From Marsupella aquatica (taxonomy: Eukaryota > Plantae > Marchantiophyta), in the NCBI GenBank assembly GCA_973895155.1, contig OZ316891.1, forward strand, positions 6,419,708 through 6,483,707: DNA of 64,000 bases. Reading direction: 5' to 3'. This document shows, in pieces, positions 31,371-62,641 of the stretch. Numbering within the stretch: position 1 is the stretch's first letter; every line of letters starts with the position of its first letter. Under the pieces are notes generated by a model. That model was not told where the DNA came from. It did no database searches and saw only the letters and a program-made list of their open reading frames with translations. Both the position numbers and the translations under genes were made by a program.

Positions 31371-32262
31371 ATTTCAAAGTGCACACGTTCAATTTCACTA
31401 GGAATCCACAGTTTATGGTGAGTATATTATTTATTATAGGACAGAAATGGGCAATAGCAAGGAAGGAACAGGGGGAGGAAATGATGCTTTTATATGATTG
31501 GGCAGGTGTGGTTTGAGGGGCTATTACAATATCATTTTCATTGGGCAACAACAGCCCTTCCAAACTAAAGCCTTTGTTTCTCAGGGCATTATGGCCCAAA
31601 ATGCCCTGTAAGTAGGTTATTACTATATATATTTGAGTGTCCATTGTGATATTTGTTTTGTAATTATAATGGGGTGCTTAATGGAGAAGAATGCCCACTC
31701 CAGATTTGATCTACGAACTATGAAACATCTCATCTACAATTACTAAATTAAAGTAGTAAAACATTAAAATAATCTCAGGCCATTAAGTGTAGCCCCTAAA
31801 ACCTCAAGTTAAAGCCATCATTTTGAGGGCCATCACAAAAATCATTTTGGGTCATTTGACGTTTCATTAATGTAGAATAGATTGGTGCAAATTTCTACAT
31901 CAATTGATGTAGTTTCTATTATTGTTAAGGATTGCTCTTAGTCATGTGACTCAAAGGTTACGGTAATTAGGTTAACCTCAGTTAGGGACTTAATTGAGGT
32001 TAGGCTAGTCGTGTGTGACAGACCTAGCTTGCATATACCAGGTTAGCGTAAGCCGCTGGTATGTGGTGCTTGCTCATTGTAATGGAACAACTTGAGGAAG
32101 AGAGAGAGCTTGTGTGTTCTACTACTCTGAAGTAAAGTTAGTGTGTTCGAGTGGACGTAGCCTTTGAGAAGAGGTGAACCACATATGGATTGTGTCGACT
32201 ACGTGAGCATGGTATGAGTCATGATCGTATCATTATGAAGGAAGATGTCATAGTTCAACAAT

Positions 32263-32274
32263 TGGTATCAGAGC
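32263..32274 (+). promoter_or_regulatory. Primer-binding site complementary to tRNA-iMet
   Basis: TGGTATCAGAGC, 2 nt after the LTR-terminal CA. Confidence 0.9.
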
Positions 32275-35200
32275 AATCTTGGGAGGTGACGCTGAGGTGA
32301 CGATAAACATAAGCAAAAGCCAATAGCACTTGCAACGTATCCCGCATAGACGCCGTAGGCGCGTTGAAATAACGAGAAAGATTTACCTTTAATCTATATC
32401 CGCATTGAGACAAAAAATAGAATTTTACCATCATTATCGCCGATGATTTGTGTCATTATTGGCTCTACCTTTCATGAATTTTTCATGACGTGTTTGTGAT
32501 GTTTTTTCCAACGGTTAGTGCCGGTGGATTTCACGGAGTTCCATCGCATGGAACTTGGAGCTGTTGGGCTCATTGGATAGATCGGGGCAAGGGCATTCTA
32601 ATGGTGCTTAGAAATCACTGAACGGAGTTTGTGGTGTAGAGGAATTCACATTTCCACCGTTCTGGATTTTTTGTGATTCGTGTTTGACGGTTTTTCTTTG
32701 ACGGTTTTTGTGGGAGGGACTTGAGATTGTTTACTCGATGGTGTGAGCTTTGCGGTGCGCAAGGCATCACATATTATAGCTCAAATTGTAGATCGGGCGA
32801 AGCTGGTCATTTCGGTATCAGGTGTGGTGAAAAGGATAAATTGAGTGTGACGGTATGAGTGACGGAGTCATTTCTGGTTTTGTTTATGGCTATGGAGAAA
32901 TAGCCTTGACTGAACTGGGTTTCTTGTCATTGGGTCCAACTTGGAGGAAGATTCGTGAAGTGCTACGGCTTAAAGGAGAGATCATGGCGAGGCGGTCATT
33001 TTGAGCTTGGGATTGGCACTTGACGCGGAGCAAGCAAGTTGCAGTGAATGTTTGTACGTTGCTGGACCTGCTGACGGCAAGGCGACAAAGGAGGCAAAAT
33101 CCGAAAACATTTTTTCCTATCAGCGGCATTAACTTGACCAAGCGACAAGGGGTGTAAAAAGGGAAACTTTTTTTGTAAGGGTCAAATTTTGCTTTTAAAG
33201 GGGTGTTTTCTCGTGTGTATACACACCTCGGCCCCCTTGAGCCCCTTATACACATAACCCCGCTCCTCCCTGACTACTCTATTTTGTGGCTACGACTACC
33301 TCACCGATCGGTGGCTTTTTTTGCCGCTCCCCGCATCCCGCCCTTTGCCTGCTAGTTAGTCATAGCCGCAACTCAGTTTCCTCCCCCCTCCCTCTTCGCA
33401 CCCGGTATCCCCCTCCCGCACTTGTTTCTTTGTCGCCGCTTTGCGGCATCATTTCAGTTCTCGGCCCAGCTCGCCCCCGGTCACCTATATTCGGCCCCTT
33501 CTTTCCCCGACCATACGCCTTCTACGCCCTTGTACATACCGCCTGGCCGGTCACGCGTATAGGGATTTTTGGGGTATAGGGCCTTTTTGGGCCGTATTTT
33601 CATGTTAAGGGGCTTAAACCCCCCTTTAGGCCTGGTTTTTTTAATTTCTTTTTTCCGCCTCTCATTGGTTAGGCGGCATCCCGGGCCCGATGACCCGCCA
33701 ATTTAACTACTTGGATAGGGAGAACGGCCCCCTGTGAGACCTGCTACACAGTCGGAGAATATTGCTGAAAAATAGAGAGCGTGCTTTTGGCCATTTGTAA
33801 AAGATTCTGACTTGAAGATGATAACTTTTTGGGTTCTTTTTTGGTGAGGGTGGAGCCATTGAAGTCGGGACTGAAGCTACCAACGCGGTGCACTAATCAA
33901 TTTGTATTCTGGTTATTCCCTGAGGTGGTCAAAATATTTTTCATCGAAGCTTGATTTCAATTTTAGATTTTGGCGTTGGTTTGCTAGGCTAGCGGGCTAT
34001 GTGGTGGTGATATAAGCTACAAGTTTTTTTAGAAGTTGCAAAAATTGATTTTTTTTCCATGATGTTGAGTTGAGTTGGGATGGAAGAAAGGAAAAAGCGA
34101 CAAAAGGATATAGGAAGCAACGTATCAATAGCACGTGAAGAACGTTGGGAGGACAGAGACGGCATCCAAGTTTGGAGGTGTCAAGTTTGAGGTAGAAAAG
34201 TATGATGGACGGACGGATTACTTGCTATGGGAAAAACTGGTCAAGAGAATTCTTCATGCTATGGGCCTAGATCATCTACTGGGGAGGAGTCTAGCAGTGA
34301 AGAGGAGATCCCGTTGAGAAAATGGAGGCAGGAGCAAGGGATCGTTGTTCATGCGGTGATGTTGTATCTCAAACCGCATATCATCAAGAAGTTGGATGAC
34401 TACGAGGATTGCGTATGCTTGTTCAAGTCTCTAAGAGACAAGCTACCACAAAGATGCCTCAAATCGGTTATACAAGAAGTCTCTCTTGATGAGCTTGAGG
34501 CTCAAAGAAGGAGGCAAGCTTAGAGATCACTTGGATAAATTTGACAGCCTAGCTATGGATTTATCAAATCTTGGCAAGGGAGTGGAAGATGAAGACTCGG
34601 GGCCTCAGTATACAGAGGCCCCCATACCACGCTCGATGTTTTGGTCCCTTGTGACCCTAACTTATTAAGTAAAATATTTTTTTCTCCCTCCCTACCATAC
34701 TTAGAAGAATTCCAAATCCTTAAATTTTGACCCCTAAAAAAGGTTAAGTAAATTTTTGGCTTCATTTAAACATACCTTACTAAGAAAAGAAAAGTTCTTT
34801 CAAATGCGTACCTTTTTTGAGTGTTTGTCAAGATTATTCGAGTCTTATTGAAGCCCTCCTATGCTCCTTTGCATTGGCATCCATGATGTCTCATCATAAA
34901 AAACTTATAATATATAGTGTTGATGCTTCCACTAAGAATCTCAATTCTAGTAGAAGCTTCAGGAATATACAATATGAGTTGTTCATATTTGCAATCTCCT
35001 ATGCTTACAGTCTCATGTGAAAGGTAGGTACGTGCACCAAAAGGAAATTGAGTTAACAATCTGAATGAGTGTATGTGGCAGAGGGAAATTGAACCCCTGA
35101 TTGAGCAAGAAGCTCAAGTATCCAAATCTGCCACCCCCTAACCTATTCCCCTAACCTATCCCTTGTACCTACTTAAACCACTACCATGACTATGGATACA

Positions 35201-36346
35201 TGCACATCATTCAACTCTAGACATGGTCTCTAGATAAGTATCCAAAGCTTGTTTGTCAACTCGATCTAACACATACACTAAGCCAATCCCTTGTTTCATG
35301 GTCAAAGTAACATTAGTCATCACCATTTCTATATCAATCCATTGTAAATCAATAGTATCATAAGTGAATTCAACCTTGCTTGAGCTTGTTGGCTTATACC
35401 AATTAAATAAAAACTAACAAATACTCCCTATGTGTCCATGAGGACGTGTAGGCCTGTCAAGCAAATCAATAGCAGATCTCACTCTAGTCCATTGTCCCTT
35501 AACTTTCTGTCTCATCATCATAATCCGACCAAGCCAAAATTCTTTCTTGGCTTGAACTTCTGGTTCCTGAGTCCTAGCTTTACCTCTTCCCTTACCTTTC
35601 CCCTTCTTTGATCTTGTAGAAGGGCCTGCAGCATTAGCACTTTCAAATGCTACTCCACAATCACTCCCAACATCAACAAAACAGGTCGCAGTATTTGGAT
35701 CACATTGTTTCCTCTTACCAAGATTATATGCCACTTGTTTCACCCTTGTGAGCCTATCCTTGGACAAATGAGGGTTGCCCACTAGTTGACTCACCAAAGT
35801 AGATTTGTAAATTGTTCTGCTCTCATAGGTAACTGTAGGCAACACCTTCCTCTTTTCCTGTAGAGGGCTCTGAATAGACTTTGTAAGATCAGCCACAACA
35901 GAAGACAACACATGACGAACCTCATGCCCCAAAGTATCTATCTCTACAGAATGAGGTTCTGGTACATCTAACTCAGCCCCATCCTGCAAAACATCGTTAG
36001 GAATGGTTAGCTCATCTGTCAACCATGCATCAATTCGATTTAGATCTTCCTCAGGGTCTTCAAATTCATGAAACTCTCCTTCTGGACGAGGTCCAATTGG
36101 AGATCTATGCTCTACATGGTCTTCAGAATCGTCAACAACAACTGCCTTTGCTATGACAGCTGAATCTGGCCATGTTTCACCTTCCACATGCCAGGGGTGA
36201 GTCCACCATCGCTTTCTTGATGCTGGCAGATCACTTCGGGGAGACATTCGCAACCTTCTAAGGAACTCTTTTGCTTCTTCAAATCCTTCTTTCAAGGCTG
36301 CAACCACCAACTCATTAGTTTGCACTTCAGAGTAATCAAAAAGATT

Positions 36347-39300
36347 GGATGGGAATGACGGATCCCCCTTCTGACCCTCACATGAGATTTGCACAGGCTT
36401 TTCAAAGGATAAGGCAATGCTATATGACCCTACAGGCTTCTCCCCTTCCACGCGACCAGGAGATGTTACTATTGAAAGAGAAACTTCGCCTACTGAAGAT
36501 TACAATCATGGAAGATTACTCCCCCGATAGCATCAGGGATTTTGCAAACACTAAGGACAGTGTACGTTCTTTAGAGCTAGAAGAAGCGCATCACTGTCGC
36601 AGACTCTCTCGAATTAAATGGCTTGGGCAGGGGGATGAGCCTTCTAAATTCTACTTCTCAACTGTGAAAGCAAAGAGGCAGCGAGAAAGAATGGAGTACT
36701 TGGTGGTGGAAGGAGGACGCGAAATACTGGATGAAAAACTTGTGGTTCAAGAATTACAGAGCTTCTGTGAGGCCCTTTACTCACCACCTGTGCGGACTGC
36801 TGAAGCCCTCAGAGATATGTATGCAGCTCGTAGAGAACTGACCCAAACCACTCATTTTGCCCCTTCGTCGGCAAAAATCAAAATGCTGGAAGAGCTTCCC
36901 TCTACGAGAGAGATACAGGAGACACTAATGATGCTACCCAATGACAAGGCTCCTGGAATCGACGGAATGACGGCAGAAGTGTTCAGAGCTTGCTGGAACT
37001 TCATGGAAGCCGATTTTCATGACATGATTTCTGATTTCTGGAGGACAGGACAACTTGCCTCCTGTATCCGTGATGGTGTGATTCGGTTTATTTCGAAGAA
37101 AACGGATAAACGTCGTTTAGGAGATTGGAGAGCTTTGACCATGCTTACCACTACCTATAAACTCATTGCTAAACTGTTGGCCCTCAGGTTAAAAATACTA
37201 CTTCCCAGTATGATTAGCCCGCAACAGACTGGCTTTATCCCTGGTAGGCACATACTGGAAAACATCTCCCTCACCTGGCTGGCCAATGATTGGATTAATT
37301 GTACCAGGACGCCATCTCTTTTCTTGAAACTGGACTTTGAAAAAGCTTTTGACAGAGTAGATCATTCCTACATCTGGGAAACGATGTACTTGTTAGGGAT
37401 AGGATCCCACTTTATTTTTCTTGTCAAATCGTTGATTGGTGGTGCTACCTCCAGGGCTCTGGTTAATGGCCTCTGGACCGCTGATGTGAGGATGTGCAGA
37501 GGGGTACGACAAGGCTGCCCACTTTCCCCTTTACTTTTTGTTCTATCTACTCAACCGCTCATGGATTTTTTCAAGGCTGAAATTGAGGCAGGTCGACTAC
37601 AGGGTATACAGGTGTCTTCAGTTTTGACTATCTGCTTTAGACTCTTTGCTGATGACCTTGGGATGTTCATTCCTGCCACAGCGGAGTCTTTTGAACAGGC
37701 TAGATGTGCTATTAATTGCTATGAGCGTGTGACGGGTGCTAAATTAAATCTAAGCAAATCGGTGGTGGTGCCTATTGCATTAGATGACATCCCTGGTTGG
37801 CTTAGGGAGACTGGCTGCCTGATCAGTGCGGAAGGAGTTGTCCAAAAATACCTCGGGGCACCCTTCGGTTACGGTCTCTCCGAGGCACAATTGCATGGTT
37901 TTTGTCTTGACAGGATCAGTGCTCGGCTCTCATCTTGGTCTACTCGGTTTCTTTCATTCACTGGTCGGGTGCTACTGGTCAAGCATGTCCTACAGGCTAT
38001 CCCGGTCTACCACATGATGTTTCTCAGGTCACCTAGTTCCTTGGCTAAGAGACTGATAGCCTTGAGTCAGGTCTTTCTATGGGGGATGAATAAACAGGGA
38101 GGGAAGCGGATCTCCCTGGTGGCCTGGTCCAAGTTATGTCGACCCAAGATGGAAGGTGGTCTGGGCTTTAAAGAATTTTGCAGTCATTCTGATGCCCTCT
38201 TGAGCAGGTGGTTTACTGGAGCACTGGATCATCCAGGGTCGGAGTGGGCTCTAATGTATGCTGAGAATTTACTGCTGACAAAATGGAGAAACTTTAAGAC
38301 TGTCCGTAGAAACCGCTACTCCATGCAGGACAAGATTCTTTTGAGCACACCTCGTTCTTTTGGCCGTTTACAGTACACAGGACAGATTTGGAGTGCTTGG
38401 ATGCAGGTGAGAGGGAATCTGATCTTCTGTCCTGGCACCGGCTCAATTCCCGGTCATTGGGGGATCGAAGACCTTCTTAGATGCTTACATGGATACTACG
38501 ACTTGCAGGAGGACATCAGAACTAGCATTGTTAAGATTTGTGGGAAACTGGGGATCAGGAAAGTATGTGACTTTTGGTCCCCTGCTGTCCACGAGTGGAA
38601 GGACTTACATGATAAGATGCATCGCATTCGTGGGCTCCCTGAGGATCTCAAGAGAACTTGCTTTGCTCTTCTGGATACAATCCGTTTGACTACCTTCCAG
38701 GGAAGTAACATGGACTCCCCTGCCAGACAATGGCGTTGGCTTGATCTTGCTTCACATCCCAAGCTATTTGTTTTATCTAATCATAGGATTTATGATATGC
38801 TCCGCACTAAGGGATCTGATTACGTTCGGCTAAACAGGATCTGGGATGTCATGCTTTCAGAGAAAGAATGGAGTGATGTCTGGCAGATTTCTTGGAAATC
38901 TGATCTGTCCACCAGGGCTAAAACCTTTGTATGGCGTGTTCTTGCCCAGGGCCTGTTCTCCGGATCCAGGGCTTTGCGGATTTTGAAGTCTGATGGCTGC
39001 TGTGAGCTCTGCCGGGGGGTGATTGAGACTATCCCACACCTTTTCTTTCACTGCCGACATGCACAGAGCTGCTGGAGCGAGACAAGTGGCTGGTTGAATG
39101 GACAGATTATTGGCCAGGACTTTAGCATTTTTGATCTCCTACTGTCTTGCCGTGTGAAGTCCCCACTGAGCACACTACGTGCCTTTTTAATCTACCAAAT
39201 CCTCTGGAATATCTGGACTGCTCGGAATGGACAGATCTTTGACTTGACAAAGACCACGAAACGCAACTTTGATCAAATAGCTGTTATTTCTGGGACGCTT

Positions 39301-39672
39301 GATCATCTTTCTGGGGTGACAGTCACATCTGGAACAAGCAAGAAACATGATCGTCTGATGGGTGCTACTGTTATGCTGGATAGAGAAAGAAGCAAGATTT
39401 TAGGTGGTAGAATTAGACGTATTGAATCTTCATGAAAGTAATGTCCCTCTGCTGGACTTTGGATGGCCTGCCCTTCACGTTTGTTTTTTAGATATGTGCT
39501 TTTGGCCTGCCAAGAGCCTAGTGTTAGAAAGATACCATGCTCCTTACTGGACTCTTTGGTCTTGGAGCTTGTACCCACTGCCCTTTTGGGACTGTTGCCG
39601 TTTGGCCTGCTTGGTCCCCTCATCCGTGGGGTTCACGCGGAATAAAATTCAAATTAAAAAAAAAAAAAAAAA
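36347..39672 (+). mobile_element. 5'-truncated L1-clade LINE inserted antisense into the transposase
   Basis: AATAAA at 39641, poly(A) to 39672, and an 18-bp TSD AGAGTAAT(C/A)AAAAAGATT at 36329-36346 and 39673-39690. Confidence 0.93.
36349..39435 (+). CDS. LINE ORF2 fragment: reverse transcriptase + zf-RVT; no endonuclease domain
   Basis: KAPGIDG, WRALTML, QTGFIPGR, KLDFEKAFD, GVRQGCPLSP, LFADD, KYLG, CELC...ETIPHLFFHC. Confidence 0.95.
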   Translation: MGMTDPPSDPHMRFAQAFQRIRQCYMTLQASPLPRDQEMLLLKEKLRLLKITIMEDYSPDSIRDFANTKDSVRSLELEEAHHCRRLSRIKWLGQGDEPSKFYFSTVKAKRQRERMEYLVVEGGREILDEKLVVQELQSFCEALYSPPVRTAEALRDMYAARRELTQTTHFAPSSAKIKMLEELPSTREIQETLMMLPNDKAPGIDGMTAEVFRACWNFMEADFHDMISDFWRTGQLASCIRDGVIRFISKKTDKRRLGDWRALTMLTTTYKLIAKLLALRLKILLPSMISPQQTGFIPGRHILENISLTWLANDWINCTRTPSLFLKLDFEKAFDRVDHSYIWETMYLLGIGSHFIFLVKSLIGGATSRALVNGLWTADVRMCRGVRQGCPLSPLLFVLSTQPLMDFFKAEIEAGRLQGIQVSSVLTICFRLFADDLGMFIPATAESFEQARCAINCYERVTGAKLNLSKSVVVPIALDDIPGWLRETGCLISAEGVVQKYLGAPFGYGLSEAQLHGFCLDRISARLSSWSTRFLSFTGRVLLVKHVLQAIPVYHMMFLRSPSSLAKRLIALSQVFLWGMNKQGGKRISLVAWSKLCRPKMEGGLGFKEFCSHSDALLSRWFTGALDHPGSEWALMYAENLLLTKWRNFKTVRRNRYSMQDKILLSTPRSFGRLQYTGQIWSAWMQVRGNLIFCPGTGSIPGHWGIEDLLRCLHGYYDLQEDIRTSIVKICGKLGIRKVCDFWSPAVHEWKDLHDKMHRIRGLPEDLKRTCFALLDTIRLTTFQGSNMDSPARQWRWLDLASHPKLFVLSNHRIYDMLRTKGSDYVRLNRIWDVMLSEKEWSDVWQISWKSDLSTRAKTFVWRVLAQGLFSGSRALRILKSDGCCELCRGVIETIPHLFFHCRHAQSCWSETSGWLNGQIIGQDFSIFDLLLSCRVKSPLSTLRAFLIYQILWNIWTARNGQIFDLTKTTKRNFDQIAVISGTLDHLSGVTVTSGTSKKHDRLMGATVMLDRERSKILGGRIRRIESS

Positions 39673-42600
39673 AGAGTAATAAAAAAGATTAGGTGCATCT
39701 TCACCTTCAAGTAAAGGATGAAGCTTGGCCCACACATGATCTTGCTTCTTATGTGATCGAGCTACTTTCAAGCCCTCTGGTCCACATTCTAATCCAGCAA
39801 GACGATTCAACCCAACAACACTATCTAACAAAGAGCCAAAGTCATAATTCCTCTCATGGCCACTCATTCCACCTACCTTGCTGAAAAAGATCTCACAACA
39901 ATCAGAACCCAACTCATGAAATGGAATACACAAGTGAGAAAATTTATCACGAAATGCACATACAAGCAACACAATGAATTGGCAAGACATATTAACATCA
40001 TGAAAAGCTTGGATTGAAATCATATTTTTCTTTGTATGTGAAGCAACATTTCCACCTACAGCATGATCACCATACCTTAACCACAACCTCCACAATCGAA
40101 AGAACCAAGAAACTTTGCCTGCCAGTTTCACTCTAGTCCTCAGATCATGTCTCTGGGAGTAGAAAATGTCAATATAATCTGCACAGATCTGCAGATACAA
40201 CTCTGTCCCCAAGCTTCGTTCATACAACATATCAGTTCTTGCATGTAGATCTGTTAAACATTCACGCACCTTGTCTGATGCTATCTTCTGAGGACCAGCC
40301 CAATTCTGACGGTCAGATCTGTTTACATCATCCCAATTCAATCCATGTTGATGAATTGGGTAATGATTGTATACATTACAAACATGAAATAGAGAAGCAT
40401 GTTGGTCTCCAAGTGCCATTATTGAGGACACTCGATCTAGTGGGTTAATCAATTTTTTCCCATTGTGAGGTTGGTCTTGATCACCAAAACCATAGAGGTC
40501 CCCATTAGGCAATATGGCAACTGAGTAAGGCCATCCTTCCCACCCTAAAGAAAATCTAGGGTAAATGCCATTTGCTCCTCTGTAGTCTTCTAACATCAAT
40601 TTTTTGCGTCTTGCATCACCATCACTAGCATGCCCAAGCAAAGGACCTACAGAGTCTCTGCAATGCACATCCCAAGATTCCTTCAATTGCACCCAATGCT
40701 CTCGAACCCATTCTGCCTTGAATTTGTTACATGTTGAAATAGCATAGAGGGCCAACTTTGGCATTCCAACATGCAATGGATTCACAATGACAACTCTAGC
40801 ATACATGCCCTTGTTAAAATCCTCAAATGTATTTACAATCTTGTTATAACCATCCTCACCGTCACCTACAAGAATTTCTAATCCAAATTCACAGGTGTGC
40901 CCATCCTTATGGCCACAGAAACCAATCAGAGTGTCATATTTGGCCTCCCACCTGCACAGAGCCCAATGAGAACCAAGTCAGATTCAAAGAATTGGTTCAA
41001 AACTACATGCATCACAAATAGTCTTCACCTCCAATCACATCATTATGTGCTATTGCAATTGACGTACCGTGGGCTTTCCTTGATCCTGGTTTCATCCTCC
41101 GCAAACATGACAGGCACATCCCCTACAATCCCCAACATCTCCTTTGTAGCAGACAAAATTCGAGCCACCTCCTTGAATGTTTCTGGCCTAATCCCAACAC
41201 GAAATTGCACAAATTTTGCTCTGTCTCGTTTTAGTGTCTTCAGGCTTGGCCCAGATAAGTTTCTTGCAAAAACATGTGCCACCTGCCGGCCTCCATATTG
41301 AAACATAGCCTGAGCAATGGCTTTTGTTTTTTGACTGTAGCGAAACCCCCTTGCACTTCTCTCCAAATTTCTACCTACATCCTTCAAGAAATCCCAAACA
41401 CCTTCTTTTCCACCAAATGCACCATTCCTATGACCATTGACAATACTCCTTAAAAAAAGTCTCAAATCTTTTCTGTCTGCAGCTACTCCTAACAGTTCTT
41501 GCAATTTTCTCTTCCTAGTACTCAGGGCACACACTTTCTGAGTCTGTAGTGCCAACAACCATCTCTCCTTTCTTCTCTTGATATTCAGGCCATGCATCTG
41601 TGTACTCAACTCTGGACGTGTCAAATAACGTGCATTCAAACCATCCTCTGTGCTTCTTTCCCCTCTCTTTGCTAAAGCCTCCGCTTCCCTGTGCACCCGT
41701 CCACGAAAGTCATCTTCTAGTGTTATAGCATGACACCTACTGCAAGTTAGGTTCAGAAAAACCCCCACCATACAAGGACAACCTACAACAATCTTTATGC
41801 CTAAATAATCCTTCTATATGTACAGTAGAATTTGTGTTAGGATTGTAGACATGAACAGAGATTGTAGCATCCATATTCCAGACATGTCCTCCCTGCTGAT
41901 CATGCAAGATACCCTTCACAGCATACTTCACATTCTTCCACTCTACATATTCATCCCATATTCCCCAACAGAGCAAACTTAAGCCCACATCAATGTCTCT
42001 AGACCCACCTGTGCCAGAGCTGCTGCTTGCATTGGAAGCATCCTCCTTGAAGAATTTTAAGATTGAATTCTGTGAAGGATGTTGATCCCTCTCATCTGGC
42101 TTCCTTGGTCTTCCCCTCTTTCCAGATCTCAATGCAAGTTCAGCAGTATTCTCTCTGGCTTCAACTACATCCAGGTGACCTCGACTGACCAAGTGTGTCC
42201 TCAAGTTGTGATCCAAAGTCCCTTTCTTACAAACCAAATCCATGATTGCCCCACAGACTTTGCAACGAACCTTATAAAGGAACCACTTGTTTGCATTATT
42301 GGCTGGACCAGGCACAGGGGGCACATGAAATAACCATCATCACCTCCACATTCAACATTCAGATTCTGGACTATCTCTAGGCCAGTTGCTATGGCACCCT
42401 CATAGTCAAACTCAAGCTTCTGTGCAAGATCAGAGGGCTTCACCCCAGTCATAGCAATACCCCTTCTCCTACAGTAATTGTCTTTGTGTTTAGCAAAGGC
42501 AAGGTGCTTGGTCTTAAAATTGCTGAACAAATTAGCAATTGACTTCTTATCTTGGGAATTATCTGCCCTCCCATAGACCACTCTACACTCAAGACACTCC

Positions 42601-43466
42601 AAATGGCCTCTCACATCCTGTCCTTCATCCCATGTTCGAACTCTCCAATTATGATTTTTATAGCCATTCTTCTGAATCCACTTCTCCAGTCTTGTAAATT
42701 CATCATTCCAGACTTTGACAGCCACCTTAGACATCAGAATAGACTCAAAAGAAGCTCTCACAGGGGGAGCTTCTTGAAGCTGTTCACCCTGGGAAGAGTC
42801 CACTGCAACCGATTGGGTGACAGCAGCGGAAACTGATGGGAACCCTGTCCTAGCAGAAGGTAGGGATCCAATTTGTTCAATGACAACAACTTTCCCATCC
42901 AATTCACACAACTCAGTCATTTTCTCACTGTTGACCTTCATGCGACCAGGAAGCCTATAATCCCAGAAATCAAAATCAAAATCAACCAATTCAGGAATTC
43001 GACTTCAAAAATCAGCTAAGGTTTGTCCTTCTTTGAAGGCCAACACAACTATAGGTTCTTCATCTTTCCCGTCAGTCACCCCATCCCTTTTTTTGTGCAA
43101 TAGCTTCACAAACTGGGTAGCCATTTCAATCAACTGGTTCAAGTAAGTTAAAGCATCAAGGGTTCTAAATACAATCACAGACACATATTGAACCTGCCAT
43201 ACATAATGAACCTGCCATCCAGCACAATAAACAACACAATATGAATCAAATTAGAGACTGCTCAAAAAACCTTTTCATAACCACATTTAAAGACCAACAC
43301 AAACAATTCTTGTTGGTTATTGTTCACATGTGATTAGCCCAGTGAAGAAGTTTGCTTTGTACTATCAATTTCACAAACTCTAAGACGTATGAGGCTGAAC
43401 AGGGACCAAGTTGCCCTCAGATATTGCATGCCTATGACAGTAAATGAAACGCCACCCTTCCACATC

Positions 43467-44045
43467 CTAGTGGTCCCTGCCCTTCACACACCTCCTGAGG
43501 TGTTTCACTCCCCCAGAGGTCTCATCATGACACCAACTTCGAGGGCACCTGCGACACTGTACAAAGTCCTTAATCCCATCCTTGTAGACTTTATAGTACT
43601 CACAAAAATGCCTTGGGCATATTAGGGTTTTTGGATTGGTTGGATGAGACCTCTGAGGCAGTGCCCCAACCATAAGTAGCACCCTAAGGCAGCTAGGGTG
43701 ATAATGAGAAAAGCAATTCGGGTGGGCACAATGGAGCACAAGAGATTCCTGTGCAGTGGGATGTTCGAATCTTCCAATGAGTCCACAAGCAAAGCATCTA
43801 GCTCTGCCGGCAGCACACAATTGACAAACCCAGGGTGCCCTCCAGTCATTGTTCTCAGGCAATGTGACAGGAGTGCAAATGGGCCCCTGCATACCTTTTC
43901 CACCAACAAAGTGAAAATGTCTACTACAAGGCCCATCACAGAATACCACATCATCTGTCTCATCACAAAAGAAACAACAAGGGGGATCCATGCGGTGGTG
44001 CTCCTTATGGGAAAATATATCAATCCTTGGCACATCAGAAGCCAT
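43467..44045 (-). CDS. Transposon-borne stand-alone PHD-finger protein (EDM2/NSD-like tandem PHDs, ~192 aa)
   Basis: CFFCDETDDVVFCDGPCSRHFH...C...WVCQLC, RCFACG...HCAHPNCFSHYHPSC, LICPRHFC...VQCRRCPRSWCH; first in-frame ATG at 44045. Confidence 0.8.
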   Translation of the reverse strand: MASDVPRIDIFSHKEHHRMDPPCCFFCDETDDVVFCDGPCSRHFHFVGGKGMQGPICTPVTLPENNDWRAPWVCQLCAAGRARCFACGLIGRFEHPTAQESLVLHCAHPNCFSHYHPSCLRVLLMVGALPQRSHPTNPKTLICPRHFCEYYKVYKDGIKDFVQCRRCPRSWCHDETSGGVKHLRRCVKGRDH

Positions 44046-45949
44046 CTCGGCTTGCCAGATAGTGAGTTTACCTCTGCACAACAGATCATTCACTTAGAAT
44101 CCGTTTTCAGCCCCTCAACATTCAACAGTAACTTGGTAGTTATTGGTCAAACAACACATACTTAACATTTAAGCATACCTTTAATGCCTTATCAAGCAAG
44201 AGATGTAGCAAATGTTGTTTGAGGTCTGCTCCTTCCACAGTTTTTTGGATCTGAACTATGGTATATTGCTGAAGCTTCTGAGATGCCTTCACTATGCCCT
44301 AAACCTATCAGGAAACCAACCCATCCTGCAAGAACAGTTGAGAGCATGTACTAATTTATCAAAAACCTGACTGATTTCAAAGAGATAACCTGCATGCGGC
44401 CAAGTTCATTCTTGGTAGAAATTGAGTCCCTTGTAGAGCACAAACCTGCTTAGATAGGAGACTAAATAGAGAAGGAGGAAAGGCAATTGAACCCCTACCA
44501 TGAAACATCCAATAAGACCAAAAACAAAAGAAGAATCTGAATGAAATTCAAGCTGAGCTCACTAGAATTTAGCATACCTTGGCAAATACTGGTTCGAGTT
44601 TATAGACTTTAGACAGCTCCTTGACAACCTGCCGTGTAATCTTCTTTGACAAACTGCACAACACAATGGCAGATGAATGTCAATCAAAGCTTTCTTTTTT
44701 TTGACTGATTTTATCTTGAAACATACAAACACAATGTCAGAATCATAGGATCACAAAAGCAAATCAATTCACCATTCATAAAACAAACTAATAAGCAGAG
44801 CAATCATTACAAAGCTTCCAAGAGTACTCAGTATTCAACATTGTTCGAGACTTAGTAGACAGCCTCAAGTGACTTCGACAGCAGATTGAACTCCAGCAAC
44901 AAGTTCTCCAGCCTCGAGTGAACTTCAGCTCAGATTGAACTCCATCCTCAAGTGACTTTGACAGCAGCAAGTTTCTAATCTGAGCGAGAATCTAAGACAT
45001 CTGAGGCAGGATTTGAGGCTTAACCAATGTGCATATTTATAAGTTGAATTGACATAACTGATAATAATTTGATTGGGCCTGTCTACTGTAATTATTTGGC
45101 ATTATGTTGATACATTGGAGCTACTTGAAACTGAAGAGACAAAGCCAAGATGGGTGCATGCTGCCAACCGAGGATGCTTCTGCCAACTAAGGACTTCTTT
45201 GGATGGAGCTAGTGAGCATCGAGAGGAAGCAATGAAGACAAACCTGGCTGCCCAACTGCTAGCTACACAGAAGCTGACTCTGAAGATTGAAGACTACTGA
45301 CTGAAGACAATTATAAAGAACTGAATCTTGATTTACTATAGTGATGCTACACTGGATCCTCGGTATCGTTCACTTAGTTACTACTACATTGATAGACTCA
45401 AGGTGCTACGCCTACTCTATCGGGAGTAAGCTCAAGATCGATGAGCTTTCCTGTTGGACAGCTGCCACTTTAAACCTTTAAAGTGGGGCAAAAAGGCAGC
45501 AACTAAATTAAAGCTGAAAGATAGATCGACAGAAAACATATTTGATAGACCTTGACGAGTGCAAGTGGAGCTAGATAGCGAAGGAAAAAGTAACAACACA
45601 GTTATCTCGCAACTCAAAAGCACCAAGATTGAGATAGAGAACTTCACCAAAAGTAGCTGTAGCAGATGAAGCACACCCAACCAAGCTTGATCAGCTCACA
45701 ATGAGCACTCGCGCCCAACCTTGGTTCACCTTGAACTCTCTATTGCAGCCCACAATGCAGCTCGCAACTTAGCACACCCAATCACAATATGACAATAGCA
45801 GCAATGGAGGCAGAACGCATGCAGCAATGCAGGCAGCAACGCCCGGTTTGAACTTGCCCAATCAATAGCCTCGCCAAATCATTGATAGCAACAACTCCTT
45901 CCAAATTAACTCGCCCCCAATCACAACCTTCCCCAATCAGAGAAGCAAT

Positions 45950-46260
45950 CTACGCCTCAATCAGAGCAGCAATATTAGCGCCTCAATCATAGCGCCTCAA
46001 TCGTAGCAGCAATCGCAGTGCAGCACCTCAAGCCACAATCGCCATAGCAATCGTAGCGTAGCACCTCAAGCCTCAATCGCAACTAGCACCTCAATCATAG
46101 CAGCGCAGCACCTCAAGCCTCAATCGATCAGCACCTCAATCACAGTAGCGCAGCACCTCAAGCCTCAATCGATCAGCACCTCAAGCCTCAATCGATCAAC
46201 AGCGCCTCAATCGATCAGCATTGTAGCAGTGCAGTGCCTCAATCGATCAGCATTGCAGCA
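45950..46260. repeat. Subterminal degenerate minisatellite (cagcacctcaagcctcaatcg-like) inside the DNA transposon
   Basis: More than 10 cctcaa(g/t)c units visible. Confidence 0.85.
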
Positions 46261-48402
46261 GCACAGCCCCTGCATCGCAGCCCCCGGCCCACTTCAAAGC
46301 TTTTTCTTTGTAAAAATGTCGATGCAACACCCAGCCCCCGATCCCCAAATTTTCCTTCACAAGCGCATTCGAATCATGTTCCCTAACCAGCCATCGCAAA
46401 CTACAACCGATGGATGGCCCAACAAATGGATGGATGGATGGCTGCCCAATTTTACCCTAAACTTGGTGTTGGACGGCTACGACAACTAGTAACAAGAAAC
46501 GGTCCCTTCCATGGACCCGAGCGACCAAATGTATGGCCCCATGATTTCACCCAAACGGCTCTAACTAGGATCGACGGACCTAAGTGACCCTTGAGTGGCT
46601 ACCCTAACCCTTGCTCTCCCCCCCTCCCTGTCCACCTCCCGCTCACACAAACAATTTGAAATTTTCCCTCAAAACTCTATGAAACCCACATGTTGCCCCT
46701 AAACCATGTTTATGCAAGGGAGTGCCACGTGGACCAATTAAAGGTTGACGCGTATCACTAGTATATTTTCTTTCCCAAGATACCCTATCTTAAACGTACA
46801 ACTTATATTGAAGAATTGAGTTTTTACCCATCCCTACCAAACTTCTAAGTTGCACTATTTATTTTTATACCCCTAAAGTTCTTCAACAAAACTTCTTAAG
46901 TCTTCCGCGACATCGAATTAAAAAACCCTATACTTAGTCACGCGTGATGGGTCGGAAGGAAATAAGTGAGGACCCCGGGGATGAAGATAAAACATTGCTT
47001 CTTCTCAACTCCTTATTCCCATTGTATCAGGGTTTGAAGCAAGTTCTCTTGTATAGAGACCTGAAAACTATTTCATATGATGAGGTGGTCAACTCTTTGC
47101 TGTCAGATGATGCACAAAAGAAATTGGGTCATGCCCAGACACCATCTTCATCTGGGACTACGTTGAATGTGAACCATGGGAGGACTCAATAGCGGATGAC
47201 TGAGAAAACATGTATTTTTCACAATCATACCCTTCACAAAATAGAGGCAAGTTGAGGTTAGGTTAGTTGTGTGTGACCTTGCATATACAAGGGCTAGTAT
47301 AAGCGGCTGGTATGTGGTGCTTGCTCATTGGAACGGAAAAACTTGAGGAAGAGAGAGAGCTTGCGTGTTCTACTACTCTGAAGTAAAGTTGACATGTTCG
47401 AGTGGACATAGCCTTTCAGAAGAGGTAAACCACGTATGGATTGTGTCGACTACGTGAGCATGGTATGAGTCATGATCATATCGTCATGAAGGAAGACGTC
47501 ATAGTTCAACAATTACACCCAATCAATAATGTGCACCTGAAATGTTGGATATTATAAATAACATTGACATTAAAGATATATACATCTTAATGCAAATTGA
47601 AGGACAACATCCAAAAAGCTTGTCAATTTGATATGCATTTCTTACACTTAGGGTTCACTGATGTACATCAATCCTCCGACTTCCATGGAAAGAGAAAATC
47701 TCCTTCCTTTCAACTATGAATTCATTATGAGAATCAATTCATTACCATGTACGTTTGACAATTCATGTCTTTCTCACAGTCAAAAGTCTCACAGCCAAAA
47801 TAGGCTGAAAATCCTAATAATACAAATGATGCACCTTAATTAGGCACATTGAAAATAAGAATACACAAAAAAAGTTTGAGTAAGATAAAATATTGATGAA
47901 AGGTGAATGGGGTATTTACAAACGACATAAAACAGTAACTAGTAACAGGAAAGTGGGTGATAATTTGTAACTTGGATTTTTTTTGGATTTTTTTTTGGTG
48001 AACAAAGTTTTTTTTGTTGGGTTAATTATCATCATATTGTTAGCGCCTGGAGCTAACAATAGCAGCGCCTGGAGCTAACAATAGCAGCGCTTGGCGCTCG
48101 CAAAAAAAGTCATAAGTTTAATTATTTTGATAAATAAGACTTTAAATAGTATATTTTTAGATCATCTTTTTTACTGGTGATAGTAAAATTTTCCTAGTAA
48201 TAGAAAACTTTTTGCTGGTACCAGCAAACCTGTTTGCTATGGTGATGCCTAGGTGAATTAGCCATTATAGTAGTATCAAAACCAAAATAAACTATATACA
48301 ATGTTCCCATTGAGACTCTCACTTGGAACATTCACTTGAGACAAGATGACATTTCACTGAGTGTCATAAAATCATGTTCATACCTTACTGGTGTTGTTGC
48401 TG

Positions 48403-51273
48403 TTCTCCGTCACTCTTGTTTCCCACCGGTACCCTGAATTGGGAAAGTTAGGTAGGCTGACCACCCAATGTAGAGGCTGCCAAATTTTCTAAGAGTGGTG
48501 GTCACCTGTACTATTTAGGCTGTCAAAGACTCCCCTCAAAGATATTGAGGGTGCAAACATGGCCCACAAGCCATTCCTAGTTCTGCTAGATCATAAACTA
48601 AGGACAGCAGTAGCGTCAACCATGCTAATGTGACTGGACATAAATCTAAAAGAGACTTGACTTAGAGGAGGAAAAGTAACCCAAATAGTTTAAGGGTAGA
48701 TGCCATGGCCCCCCCAAAAATATTTCATCTGCAATACTTTCAATACCAATAACACAACGAGTAGTTTTACGTTGTAGCTGTTGGGCAGCTTCTACATCCG
48801 CCCTAGCTCCAACTTCATCCTTCATTAAATATTTGATGTAGCCTCTATGCTGGAGGATAGTAAAATCAAGTTTGTTTTCTTGCCCGAGGTCTTGCCTCAG
48901 TTGATAAGCTGCATCCAAGTCATCAAGCGCCCCTGATAAATCTCTGCATAGCCTCCGTACAATTCCTCTCCATGTCAAGTATAGACAGAGGTTAGACTGC
49001 TGCCCGCACATCTCAGCTCTCCGTCTTAAGTATATTGGGAGGTTAGATTGCTGGGTCCTCGTGATCTCAACTTCCCCATCTGCACCCAATAAGGCGTTTG
49101 TGTAATCCCCCAACATAGCTTCAAGAAATATCCATGCCCACCTGCCGACACAGGTCGATGTGTCAATTGACCTGTGGAACTGCATAAGACATCTTAATAT
49201 GGAAGCGGAGGGGACATAGACCTCCAAATAACTTGAGTTCCTTCTCACACACCACTTTGACAAGCTTGTGTATAGTGAAGCCCTCTCACAAGGGCATTTT
49301 TGTGGATAATGCCTGTCTTACGTTGATTCTAAAGGACAGGACCTCAGGGCAGGACCTCAAGGCTGCAAAGTTTGCAGCCCTTGCCCCTGGTTCTCCACCT
49401 TTGCATGCCATAAGACCTGCCTGAATAGCAGGTTCTTCCACAAAATTCTCAGTTAGTATGTTATTGCCATCTTTGGAGTGGAGGGCAGGAAAACTAAGGG
49501 CCTCACACATACAAGAGAGCCCTAAGGGCCGTCTTGCATGTAGACGGTCCTAAAAACTCTGCCCTTTACTTAATGTCTCTCGGGCTATGAGTGAGCCAAG
49601 CTTCCCCCCTCACCATGCAGTCCTCACGGGTTTAGGGTGCAAGGAGTTTGAAGGGCAAGGGCCAGAAAGTTTCCTGCCCTTCAGAGTCCCAACTTTTGAT
49701 ATATGAATAAGACAATATATTGCCCTAGAAAGAAGGAAAGAAAGGGACAAAGAAGGACAGGCGGGTGAGTGGGAAGGGCACACATCTTGAAGTAGCAGAT
49801 TATGTGAGGATTTGAGATGACCTTTTGGATTATGTGAGGATTTGAGATGACCTTTTTGGCCGACAATTTAGGAGTCATAAGGGCCCCATTTTTTTTAAGA
49901 CGATGGCACTTGCAGGACAGCCTTAAGGACCTCACACATAAATCTAAATAGAAGATTACACTTTGGGAACACAAGCCATTTCTCTTTGCACACAAGGCAA
50001 GCTCAAAGGTACACAATCCAAGCAGTTTCGTACCTCAACATTTCTGCAGCATAATCGGCGTACAACGAATAATAACTGAACGTCATCACCACTAAGTTCA
50101 TTCCCACTAAAACGACCCTATCCGGAGTCGGGATCTGGTCAAAATGCAGTAGAGCGAGTTCCAAGTTTTCAAGAGCCTCCTCGTACGCTCCCATATGAAA
50201 ATGAACTTCAAATCGAGTCCAATATATTCCGAAGCATTCGCACGCTCCCATCGCTGGAGAAGAAGATACTGCTTGTAGTTGTTTCAGAGTTGGTACGTCT
50301 CTCAATCTTGGGTTTGTTGAAGCGTAGCAGAGCCTTGTAAGCGCCATAGTAGAATTAAAGGGCCACACCCAAGGGTAATCATTGCTTGTATTAATCTCGA
50401 TAAGTTGCAAGAATAGCAAACCTTCCTCAAGCCCAGGCAATGAAGCAATGGAATGTCTCAGCTCCTTGTCCCGTGCTAGCTGATCCAGTATTCCGGCAGC
50501 TCTAGAAGCTCGATCCGTCAATTCTGTCCGATGCTTCTCGCTTTGAGTGCCCTGCCATGTTTCCTTGAGTCGAGCCAGGATATTTCCAAGGCCACGTAAT
50601 GAACCGCTCTGGATGGTACGAAATTTGATCCTGTTCTCTTCCACGGATGCCAGATCACGCAATATGTATCCTGCCAATTTGCGGAGTAATAGACGTTCCA
50701 GCTCAGTGGATGCAACCTGTGAGGGTGTCACTGTTGTGAGGAACAAATTGAAGAGCTCATTTGTGACTCAAATTCATCTTTTGTGAGCTCATTTGTGACT
50801 CAAATTCATCATTTGTGACTCAAATGATTTGTGACTCAAATTGTGACTCAAATTCATCTGTGATAAGAGTTCCGGCCATGCGAAGCTATTATGGAATAAT
50901 GGACTTCGACCAGAGCCCAACTATGAAGTGAGATTGTGACTCAAATGATGTGCGTCTCTGCGGCAGACGAGAGGATACCACACTATCTATACATGCAAAC
51001 TAGTTAATCAACCATGGGTTCCTATGCGACGAGCAATAGTTTGCTAAATTATGGTCATACATGCTCTCCTGTGCGAATGCGAGGAATTAGAGAGTGTGGT
51101 GTCGATCTTAGAGGCTCGATCTGGGCATGTGGCCGTTGCACAAAGTCGCTTGCCCGCGTTGGGGGAGACTCCAACGCGCTAAGTGGGGTACCATAGCCGT
51201 GTTTGCCGCGACACTTTGACTACTGGAGCCACGCGGAACATTCGGTCCATGAGGAATTGGTCGACAAGTCAAC
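48403..51273 (-). pseudogene. Internally deleted tandem copy of the NB-ARC-ARM/TPR gene (upstream fragment fused to the 3' exons)
   Basis: 48403-50757 aligns with 53409-56656; ~50851-51273 aligns with 60056-60490; last exon 49312-48646 is open; no in-frame ATG at the junction. Confidence 0.85.
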
Positions 51274-53654
51274 AAATGGGGGACTGGGAAGATAGAGATC
51301 AGGCAATATTTTAGAGAAAGTAAGGATTACCAATAGGATAAGGTACTGGTTAGAGGGCATTGTGAAATATAATGCCCTGAAAAAAGAGGGCAGTAGCCCG
51401 AGTTTTGAGGGCATTATTTTCATAAGGCCGGTAACTAGTACATTAATGTACATAAAAACTTGAGTGACTTTTCACCCCAAGGGCAAGGCAACCCATGGTT
51501 AATGCTTTATTTGTAAACGACACACCATAGTTGGTTAGGATTTGTGCCTATCCACCCCCACCCCCACCCCCAAGGAAAATGCTGCAAGAACAAGGGAGAT
51601 TGGTGGGTTAAGTTGTGTGCCCAGTAAGTTGAGGTTTCAGAGGTGAGGTTTTTACTACACACCGAGCTCGGGGGGCCATTATATGAAGGGTCCTACATGG
51701 TGTGCAATGTGTTTAGGTCTAAACCCATAAATTATAAGCAATTTTAGTTTTTCCTGACCTTACTTACTTTAAAGCAGCCAATTTTTTTATTATGTTTACC
51801 CCTTAAAACTTTAAGTAAAGTTGTGTTTTGAATTAAACAATGCATATAAAGAAATGATAAGTATCTTGTAGGTTAGAGCCCAAATGTTTTGTAATTATTC
51901 AATTTGCTCCGTCTTTTCGCTTAATGCAATTTACTTTGCCTTTCCACTTGACAGTAGATCCTACATCTCTTGTACAGTCCATAGACCATGAAACTAAATA
52001 ATTATATATATTATTCTATGGGTGTTCAATTAATTAACAATCAACTTGTCTATTTTGCTCTCTAAACTCTCAAATATTGTAGCATGGTGGGTACCATGCA
52101 CTACAAATAGGAAACCAAACACTATCCATTGCCTATTCAAGGTGTCAATTCTTTACCTTGCTTCACAACCCGTTGCATGACTACATTATATCCACAGACT
52201 GGAGCAGAATTGAGCCAATGGCAATTTACAACTCATTTGTTTGAGCTCATGGCCTCAAATAAGAAGCAGAGGTGACCTTCACCATAGGTCACTTGAATGC
52301 AAAAGAAAGGTCCCCTTGACACAAGTGGGGCATTGAACACATTGGGCTTAGGATAGGATTTTCATGGTTAATTCTATGATAATGATAAAGTAAAAAAATA
52401 CAAACTATATCCTAGACATTTTTCAAACCAACTAGCAATACTCGTATTTGCAATTATTAACAACATTGAAAATAACACAAGGCATTACAAGACACACAAA
52501 CCTCTCAGACATGAAAACTCAAACTTTGCACTTTTCCTTCACCAAGCTTCCTTTCTTAGTTTTATTGTTTTCCTTCTCTTCTCATGCAACCAGTTAGACA
52601 CAATCATTTCCTTGGGTTAGACAATATGGGCATGTAAACAAATGCTAGCAAAATGGATAGCAGTAGATGTCTATGACAAACAAACAATGAGTCTACCCAA
52701 AGACCTCAGTCTACATTGCACTTCAAGGTCCAACGGCAGTTCTCCTAGCCAACATTGTCCTTGAACCACATCTTGTTATGGCATCAACCTCTGCCTTTTG
52801 ACCTCTGCATGAAACTCAAAGTGTTCAAACTGAACATTGGAATTGGGTGGCAGGTTGGCTGCCCCTTAATTCCCTGGCTTGAACCCCAAACCTGAATAGC
52901 AAAAACCCTAGCCTAACCTAACTTAACCCTCTATTCCTATCAAAGCCCCAATAGCCTCCTTAGGTTACGCCCTTCCATAGCCCTTCTATAGCTAGCCCTC
53001 CTCCAGTAACAGCAGCAACAATTGAGACTCCATGAAATTGGTTTGCCACTAAATATAAATGCCCAAACCCTACACCCATGCATGCTTTTAGCTATTCTCT
53101 TGGGAAAAGTTAAATTAACTATTCTTTGGGATATACACGTGTACCAATTACACAGTGACAGGCTACCAATTAGAACATGACACATGTCCAATTCATGTAC
53201 ATGACACAAAAAACCCTTTCTTAGACAACTTCATGGAATATGACCCATTTAATATGGGCCTATTGTTCTTTGATGCAGACCCAAAAATTTAACCAAGTAG
53301 TTGGGGTACATCAAGTTTTGAGGGTTCAGACCCCTGGACCAATTAGAACATCCCCAATGGTGCCATTTTTGCTTAAAGCCTCAAAAACAATGATATTGGA
53401 GATGAGTATTCTCCGTCTTGTCTCCCACCCTAAACTCCGGTACCCTGAATTGGGAAATTTAGGTAGGTTGACCACCCAATGTAGAGGCCGCCAAATTTTC
53501 TAAGAGTGGTGGTCACCTGTACTTTTAGGCTGCCAAAGACTCCCGTGAAAGCAATGACAGCGCAAACATGGCCCACAAGCCAGTCCTAGTTCTGCTAGAC
53601 CATAAACTAAGGACAGCAGTAGCGTCAACCATGCTAATGTGACTGGACATAAAT

Positions 53655-59600: not shown

Positions 59601-59769
59601 GTAGCTGAGCGCTCCACTGATCATGCTTCTGACGAAGTATCGAGACTTGGGCTTTGAATGACTCCACCTCAGCGGAACCTTTGTACCAACCATCTTGGAG
59701 CTGGTTAGCAAACTCGGACGCTTTTAGGACCAGATCTAGGCAGGACTTCACCTCTGTTATTATAACCAT
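53655..59769 (-). CDS. Non-canonical NLR-like STAND ATPase: helical N-terminus + NB-ARC + ARM-like + TPR-like repeats
   Basis: Exons 59769-58690, 58475-57606, 57212-55936 and ~54283-53655 (last acceptor uncertain). P-loop GGPGLGKS, Walker B LLIVLDDVWE, RNBS-B RFLVTSQ, GLPL-like GYLPLSL, MHD-position AGHCL; TPR-like YLTWRGIVRRLCRDLSGALDDLDAAYQL and LQHRGYIKYLMKDEVGARADAEAA. Confidence 0.85.
54315..55254. other. 940-bp segment present in the full-length gene but absent from the duplicate
   Basis: The duplicate reads ggataa|tgcctg (49304-49315); here the two halves lie at 54309-54314 and 55255-55260. Confidence 0.8.
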
Positions 59770-59948
59770 CTGGTAGATAGGAGAAGATCGAAGAGAGCTC
59801 TATCGTGACCGTCGGTACTGTTAGTTGCAAATCCCGATCATTTTGTTCTTACAATTATCGCACGATCGCATTTGAAGGGATCGGGATGTGAACACAATCC
59901 TAGCTAGATCATTCATGCTAACTAGGAAAAACCCGAGCCTGAAATCAG

Positions 59949-62263: not shown

Positions 62264-62641
62264 TTAATAATATTTTCATACACACAGGGCTTTTTCACGG
62301 CTTAAATTTATGAACGATGTGCATAGATTTAATCTATTTTCTCTAAAAATCTGCATCCGGTAAGGTAGTTACACAAGAATATCTTTTAGTTTTTGGAAAA
62401 AGGATAGGAAAAACTTTTAGTCCGAGCATTCAATCTAGCCTCAATATACACTGCAAGGGGTAATTATAGCATGAGAGCAAACAATGAAAAAAATCCATTT
62501 GAATAAAAAAACCCCACTTCACTAGCAAAGTTAATCCCCAGCTAGCCAACATGGTTAATAAATTCCAAATTTGCAAGTACTCTTTTGGCTAGTAGACTCG
62601 CTGAAAAATATAAAGCACTCAAAATATAAAAACCGGCAAAA

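Follow-up and report, generated by a model that had tools for sequence, protein, structure and literature searches.

A selected triple-PHD accessory gene in a predicted P-type transposon of a liverwort

INTRODUCTION

Repbase holds P-element entries from green algae, and Rehavkus is one of the mobile elements that bear PHD fingers. For land plants, Table 1 of one review names six TIR superfamilies, and P is not among them (PMC9033089). Plant DNA transposons are known to carry accessory genes that were co-opted from host chromatin proteins (PMC5735166, PMC13547354), and the PHD finger of RAG2 reads H3K4me for its DDE partner (PMC8355894). The C-terminal PHD fingers of EDM2 and of NSD proteins end in His (PMC3776765). 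Our literature search, with most subscription papers outside its scope, found nothing on bryophyte P elements or on PHD accessory genes in them; the main text of PMC13547354 has no occurrence of PHD or EDM2, and PMC8616336, in the part available, does not cover either subject. Earlier annotation of the element family described here is possible.

Here, we analysed a 64,000-nucleotide stretch of contig OZ316891.1 from the liverwort Marsupella aquatica (the window, to which all coordinates refer). A preliminary description had proposed that an EDM2-like triple PHD finger is encoded there as a stand-alone transposon accessory gene, used for anti-silencing or for integration targeting. We find that the PHD gene is a real, selected and lineage-specific accessory gene of a predicted P-type element.

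RESULTS

The carrier element and its insertion site

The carrier is a 12.4-kb multi-copy element (34596–46979) with short inverted ends of the form C[C/T]CGGGG and an 8-bp target duplication. Its boundaries and its surroundings are as follows.

34588–34595, plus strand: left copy of the 8-bp target-site duplication GATGAAGA (from the sequence and an insertion-free joint)
46980–46987, plus strand: right copy of the same duplication (from the sequence and an insertion-free joint)
34596–34609, plus strand: short imperfect terminal inverted repeat (CTCGGGG...) at the element's 3′ end, a terminus common to the complete relative L003
46965–46979, minus strand: short imperfect terminal inverted repeat (CCCGGGG...) at the element's 5′ end; run contigs diverge behind 46979
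31994–47514, plus strand: Copia-type LTR element hosting the insertion, with LTR-like repeats at 31994–32263 and 47252–47514 and insertion-free copies in the runs

A duplication combined with a 6-of-7 inverted match is weak alone, as 37 of 200 shuffles gave one by chance, and the element's ends therefore rest on the read joints and on L003. Contigs joining 34587 to 46980, with eight letters fitting both sides, were found in three of four runs, while 28 contigs of run X1 exit the element at 46979 into unlike flanks (agreement 0.35), evidence of many insertion sites. The insertion-free joints need not mark an empty allele, as other copies of the Copia-type family may supply them. The gag-like ORF of the Copia-type element, so labelled from our own reading of gag-like sequence without a library match, is split at the 8-bp duplication. 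The earlier observation that the element landed inside another transposon is thus borne out, with Copia gag and a copy of the duplication on both sides.

Within the element, the transposase gene spans 43124 to about 35213 and is interrupted as follows.

41068–43124, minus strand: transposase exon 1, encoding the N-terminal and Cys/His domains up to the first catalytic Asp (motif AEDET)
40952–41067, minus strand: probable GT..AG transposase intron of 116 nt, read from sequence only
39691–40951, minus strand: transposase catalytic core (GHASDGD, DQxHNGKK, GSDxxExFFS), from the sequence and the fold of homolog P0007
36347–39672, plus strand: 5′-truncated LINE (RT, zf-RVT, poly-A) in the transposase gene, flanked by an 18-bp duplication
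35213–36346, minus strand: transposase C-terminal part, with a premature stop at 35414–35416 where other copies have Gln

Joining across the probable intron gives ESPR-WEAK, in line with KPRVRWESR in P0007. Exon 1 carries an in-frame stop (43005–43007) and frameshifts near 42334 and 41757. The 3.3-kb LINE lies between duplicated stretches (36329–36346 and 39673–39690, 17 of 18 letters alike), and a loose end at 36346 in run X4 goes on as window position 39691; its open 1,038-aa RT frame and poly-A tail point to a probably recent insertion. None of the other copies listed has either frameshift, the stop at 35414 or the LINE; the stop at 43005 is not among the listed differences. The element's 5′ region (44100–46979) varies between copies, with joints that skip 150–210 bp near 44050–44260, and contains exon-like stretches with GT donors (44179 and about 44578) and short tandem repeats (45950–46260).

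Elsewhere in the window, further CTCGGGG-like terminus motifs occur at 63420, 51667 and 14821, the first of which resembles the ends of loci L004 and L013 and may begin another element. Duplicated NB-ARC/TPR-like gene pieces (48500–60500, repeats 89–97% alike) adjoin long inverted repeats (59944–62268), and ankyrin-repeat ORFs lie at 18597–20748. In long minus-strand ORFs with a zinc knuckle (630–7717), a coding repeat of 57 nt recurs about 20 times (5906–7357); Pfam found no RT match in this interval.

Superfamily placement of the transposase

The transposase core has 37 longer homologs, the named ones coming from Riccia, Calypogeia and Adiantum, and it nests with the Riccia proteins with support of 99/99 in a tree without three long-branch rows, as befits a liverwort host. 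Sequence searches of the PDB gave no significant match, and folding alone placed the transposase. The fold test was made not on the window's broken protein but on P0007, a Riccia homolog that is 57% identical to the window core and belongs to the same clade (99/99). The P0007 model (pLDDT 78) matched the Drosophila P transposase 6p5a with a Foldseek E of 3e-10 and a VIA Z of 25.5 (rmsd 3.4 Å over 394 residues; next entry Z 9.4), and this fold match includes an RNase H DDE core with the P-type helical insertion domain. Across 29 transposase homologs, Pfam reported TNP-like RNaseH_N in one (E=2.6e-4) and GBD in one (E=0.13); P-transposase clusters appeared among the Atlas look-alikes with scores under 0.9. 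We rejected hAT, Transib/RAG and MULE, whose solved structures, where there are any, fall far short of the P score; KDZ was also considered and, having no listed structure, stood outside the fold comparison.

Animal P elements begin with CA, and the termini in the window differ. The 8-bp target-site duplication is common to the window (GATGAAGA) and L003 (GTTTTCAT); the terminal inverted repeats are short and imperfect in the window and perfect over at least 25 bp in L003. Ends similar to those of the family adjoin the transposase in L001, L004 and L013. Pfam found no THAP domain in the window ORFs or in the 29 transposase homologs. Because THAP is described as not found in plants (PMC7776569), a THAP9-like filing is barred, though not the wider P superfamily. 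We classify the element as a predicted cut-and-paste transposon of the P-element superfamily.

The complete relative L003 (192–6287) is 6.1 kb long and has a single ORF of 1,500 aa; its CTCGGGG... ends are perfect, and an 8-bp duplication flanks it. Intact in appearance, it is a candidate active P-type element. As to other chromatin-type modules in the family, motifs led us to suspect a BAH- or Tudor-like reader in the window transposase's C-terminus, where profile searches found nothing. In the distant family member P0036, the C-terminus is a PTM/DIR17-like Tudor domain (E=1.6e-8), which may have been gained independently.

The PHD gene and its lesions in the window copy

The second gene of the element lies on the same strand, upstream of the transposase.

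43380–44045, minus strand: stand-alone triple-PHD (NSD/EDM2-type) accessory gene of 221 codons, pseudogenised in the window copy
43467–43469, minus strand: premature TAG at codon 193 of the PHD gene, a Trp codon in all other covering copies
44074–44178, minus strand: candidate 5′-UTR intron before the PHD start codon, from splice-like motifs

From the ATG at 44045 to this TAG, the ORF encodes 192 residues with the three Cys/His fingers that had been noticed at the outset, and it scores above the curated cut-off for Pfam PHD_NSD (E=5e-9), with weaker matches to PHD-1st_NSD and PHD. The ORF had also been called uninterrupted, which did not hold. At base 43468, the Trp letter makes up 100% of depth in all four runs of a first set (11, 9, 17 and 1 contigs) and in all four runs of a second; X1 and X5 belong to both sets, which together comprise six different runs. 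Translation beyond the TAG yields DVEGWRFIYCHRH, followed by a second stop at 43380–43382, and this read-through C-terminus agrees with the C-termini of homologs P0002 and P0003. The final C..H of the 221-codon gene, near its end, is the last zinc-ligand pair. The stop at 43467–43469 is thus private to the window copy and premature, and it deprives finger 3 of its closing C..H ligands. In addition, the window copy has Tyr at codon 151, a ligand position read as Cys in 72–100% of the depth from other copies, and Ser at codon 118, where nearly all other copies keep a conserved Gly. The PHD gene of the window copy is a pseudogene.

The gene's true end lies 255 bp from the transposase ATG (43124); the upstream, same-strand arrangement first described was correct, but the distance of ~340 bp was not. 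Run contigs show that other copies stay alike up to 44087. The observed/expected CpG ratio of the PHD gene (0.21) equals that of the transposase (0.21–0.26), while the element's 5′ region reaches 0.53; this shared depletion suggests long residence in the element.

Retention and selection across copies

In four runs, each from a different study (organisms A, B and C and an air metagenome), 147, 154, 15 and 45 contigs cover the PHD stretch; most of these contigs are at or below about 95% likeness, and X1 and X2 may come from the same source as the window. One diverged contig (43 other letters, 34 gaps), present in X1 and X4, spans 43101–43485 and links the 3′ end of the PHD gene to the transposase start. 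The ORF is accordingly retained in other element copies across several runs and organisms, and a stand-alone gene consisting of fingers only does travel with a DNA transposon, as had been proposed. Relative to the transposase, the summed depth of contigs is 0.76–1.08 for the PHD gene and 0.03–0.13 for the 5′ region; contig depth cannot rank genes, and these ratios are a hint only.

Among the 40 best-supported of 152 difference rows, 39 were coding and 20 synonymous, compared with 21–28% expected. The corresponding pN/pS is about 0.25–0.37 (p from 3e-5 to 2e-3), a value that mixes lineage differences with the window copy's own lesions and is not branch-wise. The preliminary description had looked to a dN/dS below 1 as its check, with neutral evolution or a single-copy host fragment as the contrary outcome; we found a synonymous excess and many copies. 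One of 19 amino-acid differences falls at a ligand codon, where the others restore Cys, a count that alone is not significant. The homologs P0002 and P0003 (57% and 53% identical to the PHD gene) have a like length, keep all ligands, start at a similar place and stop about 15 residues past the last ligand.

We found the PHD gene in none of 35 metagenome loci with more distant related transposases, eight of which (two near-duplicates) have ~900 bp or more upstream, in addition to the complete L003; five of these upstream-covered loci were placed in the transposase tree, outside the window's clade. This distribution implies a lineage-specific gain, or loss elsewhere. None of the 37 transposase homologs contains a PHD, and none of the PHD-search matches contains a transposase. 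A metagenome scan with the PHD alignment returned 143 pattern matches and no confirmed relative. In run X5, one contig leaves the PHD gene at window position 43847 into sequence that resembles the family terminus, a junction that points to a probable insertion of a related element into the PHD gene of organism C.

Origin of the PHD gene

Among 1.84 billion representatives searched, 148 matched the PHD gene, comprising EDM2, shorter bryophyte EDM2-like paralogs without the methyltransferase-like domain, and free-standing triple-PHD proteins of 215–245 aa. Identity to any named host protein is at most 29%, which argues against a fresh Pack-type capture; a Pack-type captured host fragment was rejected on this identity, the many copies in several organisms and the pN/pS of 0.25–0.37. 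A recent capture is also unlikely because the Riccia and Marchantia paralogs are mutually close, and the PHD gene is far from them.

A quick tree of 149 rows (18 of 167 were dropped for short coverage) did not settle the gene's place. In careful trees of 46 and 26 rows chosen from these 149, the gene groups with liverwort paralogs (100/99 and 99/99) on a very long stem branch of 2.5–3.5 changes per site, and its DPP..C and RHFH motifs match those paralogs. Approximately unbiased tests gave p=0.126 and 0.208 for EDM2 proper as sister, and p=0.147 for the moss paralog. The gene is far diverged from host genes, and neither EDM2 proper nor the moss paralog is rejected as its sister. The likeness to EDM2 stands in so far as the gene encodes an EDM2/NSD-type triple PHD module; the best trees put it nearest to EDM2-like paralogs of liverworts, not to EDM2 proper. 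We favour as putative donor a liverwort EDM2-like paralog without the methyltransferase-like domain, and we infer an ancient capture after which all other domains were lost.

A second free-standing triple-PHD clade (P0051, P0190–P0193, P0195, P0153 and P0125; 215–245 aa) is 25–35% identical to the window gene and its sister in one tree (90/95, long branches). Its members are possibly accessory genes of other transposons.

Fold and predicted reader properties

Single-sequence PDB searches with the PHD ORF returned nothing significant, and a 29-member profile matched PHD1–3 of NSD2/NSD3 (E=5e-23) and PHD1 of AIRE (E=2e-4). The closest folds of the P0002 model (pLDDT 75) are the NSD3/NSD2 tandem PHD modules, several of which were solved with H3 peptides; these fold matches are weak, the best values being a Foldseek E of 1.4e-3 and a Z of 5.9. 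The Atlas score to a streptophyte PHD_NSD cluster was 0.93. The tandem atypical PHD ligand pattern that ends in C..H is complete in P0002, in P0003 and in the read-through translation.

The first finger shows an acidic C..CDE...CDG pattern, and His takes the place of the Trp found in K4me3 readers. Fingers with this acidic pattern and without the cage Trp bind H3 tails unmethylated at K4, and by this general rule we predict the same for the PHD protein. Pfam detected no recognisable DNA-binding or catalytic domain and no VANC-like family match, so the protein likely needs a partner. A predicted complex of P0001 with the core plus C-terminus of P0005 scored 0.00; P0005 is a non-cognate transposase, 73% identical to the window core, and the prediction was run with alignments unused and the transposase's N-terminal half absent.

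DISCUSSION

Several mechanisms would allow a small PHD protein to benefit the transposon that carries it. In our leading, though still tentative, reading, the PHD protein is a partner of the transposase that biases insertion to silent, repeat-rich chromatin. On this view the element is a P-type transposon with two genes, the second of which codes for a small zinc protein with three fingers, made as a separate product as its conserved start and stop suggest. This protein would bind H3 tails unmethylated at K4, contact the transposase and, through that contact, direct insertions toward silent, repeat-rich chromatin. Since a readers-only protein needs a partner, the element's own transposase is the simplest choice from which the carrier alone would profit, and RAG2 offers a parallel. 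Both readable insertion sites lie in transposons (the Copia gag and, in run X5, the PHD gene), but in a repeat-rich genome two sites cannot reveal a bias. As counterpoints, Drosophila P elements prefer promoters and replication origins in open chromatin (PMC7776569), and related elements move without the PHD gene, as in the 35 loci and the single-ORF L003.

Alternatively, the PHD protein could be an anti-silencing or read-through factor that binds the element's own H3K9me chromatin, either mimicking EDM2, and so yielding full-length transposase transcripts from heterochromatin, or displacing, as a decoy, the host's EDM2-like readers together with their partners. EDM2 binds H3K9me2, alters the silencing of many TEs and promotes full-length transcripts near TEs (PMC7529245, PMC3632883), and plant DNA transposons have co-opted host chromatin proteins as anti-silencers, VANC being one (PMC5735166, PMC13547354). 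The element's CpG depletion implies long methylation, and all the selection evidence fits this alternative equally well. However, EDM2's other domains are absent from the PHD protein, and a general decoy would presumably free other TEs as well, a weak benefit to the carrier. The analogy with the VANC proteins of MULEs, which the preliminary description had drawn, is weak because VANC takes its specificity from DNA motifs, for which the PHD protein has no recognisable domain. The carrier itself is P-superfamily-like and not a MULE. We regard anti-silencing as possible and somewhat doubtful, and modestly favour targeting over it.

It is unlikely that the fingers instead serve as a non-histone adaptor or regulator, with the transposase or some other host protein as their binding partner and transposition licensed, stabilised or repressed as a result. 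The long stem branch can be read as a change of function, surface residues diverge while ligands are kept, and the host C-terminal TPxRxHIxFP motif has been lost; yet the first finger (DPPxCxxCDEGGxxLxCDGPCxRHFH) is still close to host paralogs, with its H3-binding surface predicted by the general rule above. A mere passenger, whether a captured host fragment that was amplified with the element and decays neutrally, or an exon that lies upstream of the transposase and is spliced to it, is quite improbable: the window copy is broken, relatives lack the gene and P elements do use alternative splicing (PMC7776569), but the gene shows synonymous excess, distance from named host proteins and intact homologs (53–57% identical) that stop at a similar place, while the transposase has its own start, aligning with homolog N-termini, and none of the homologs retrieved for either protein joins the two.

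Returning to chromatin-guided targeting, a broader conjecture, which we hold possible but would not count on, is that the PHD gene is a RAG2-like targeting subunit in one liverwort lineage of an overlooked land-plant branch of P elements, an EDM2-like capture stripped to 220 residues. If true, this P branch would be widespread (liverworts, a fern and many plant-like contigs), with insertions sent to heterochromatin, and the clade of P0051, P0190–P0193 and P0195 would stand for other lineages that use such a subunit. Because some sister lineages have the PHD gene and others lack it, redirected insertion can be tested directly against defeated silencing. The element would represent a two-gene P-type transposon in land plants, for which the review's table lists no P (PMC9033089), with an accessory gene taken from the proteins by which the host itself reads heterochromatin; a compact reader subunit that can be exchanged would also be of interest for targeted transposon tools.

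Comparison with known systems

Compared with the P-element superfamily (PDB 6p5a/6pe2; THAP9-like), the window's family shares, by a wide margin, the fold of the catalytic core and insertion domain, together with the 8-bp duplication and terminal inverted repeats. It differs in having no detected THAP, a transposase of about 1,500 aa with other N- and C-terminal domains, C[C/T]CGGGG termini, a separate second gene, and named homologs from liverworts and a fern.

EDM2, bryophyte EDM2-like proteins and PHD1–3 of NSD1–3 share with the PHD gene a tandem atypical PHD module ending in His (PMC3776765), and Marchantia Mp1g03210 and Riccia R1sor_003797 also have its DPP..C and RHFH/RYFH motifs. Unlike EDM2, the PHD gene encodes fingers only, with neither an RFD-like N-terminal domain nor the ELP methyltransferase-like domain, and unlike EDM2 and NSD alike it is transposon-borne, at 29% identity or less.

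The RAG1L/RAG2L pair (ProtoRAG/Transib) likewise combines a DDE transposase with a separate partner gene and possibly an H3-reading PHD (PMC8355894). RAG2, of another superfamily, is a beta-propeller with one H3K4me-reading PHD that was lost in amphioxus ProtoRAG, whereas the window gene is a tandem triple PHD alone. VANC of VANDAL (MULE) and TnpA of En/Spm are, like the PHD gene, lineage-specific accessory genes with an origin in host chromatin proteins (PMC5735166, PMC13547354), but they bind specific DNA and belong to unrelated superfamilies, whereas the PHD protein is a predicted histone-tail reader. Finally, PHD fingers recur in transposons, as in Chlamydomonas Gypsy-7a and CR1-like LINEs (PMC9940879), where they are domains of a polyprotein or transposase rather than a free-standing NSD/EDM2-type triple module. 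The theme is therefore not new; the novelty lies in the superfamily, in the host group and in a free-standing module of the EDM2 type.
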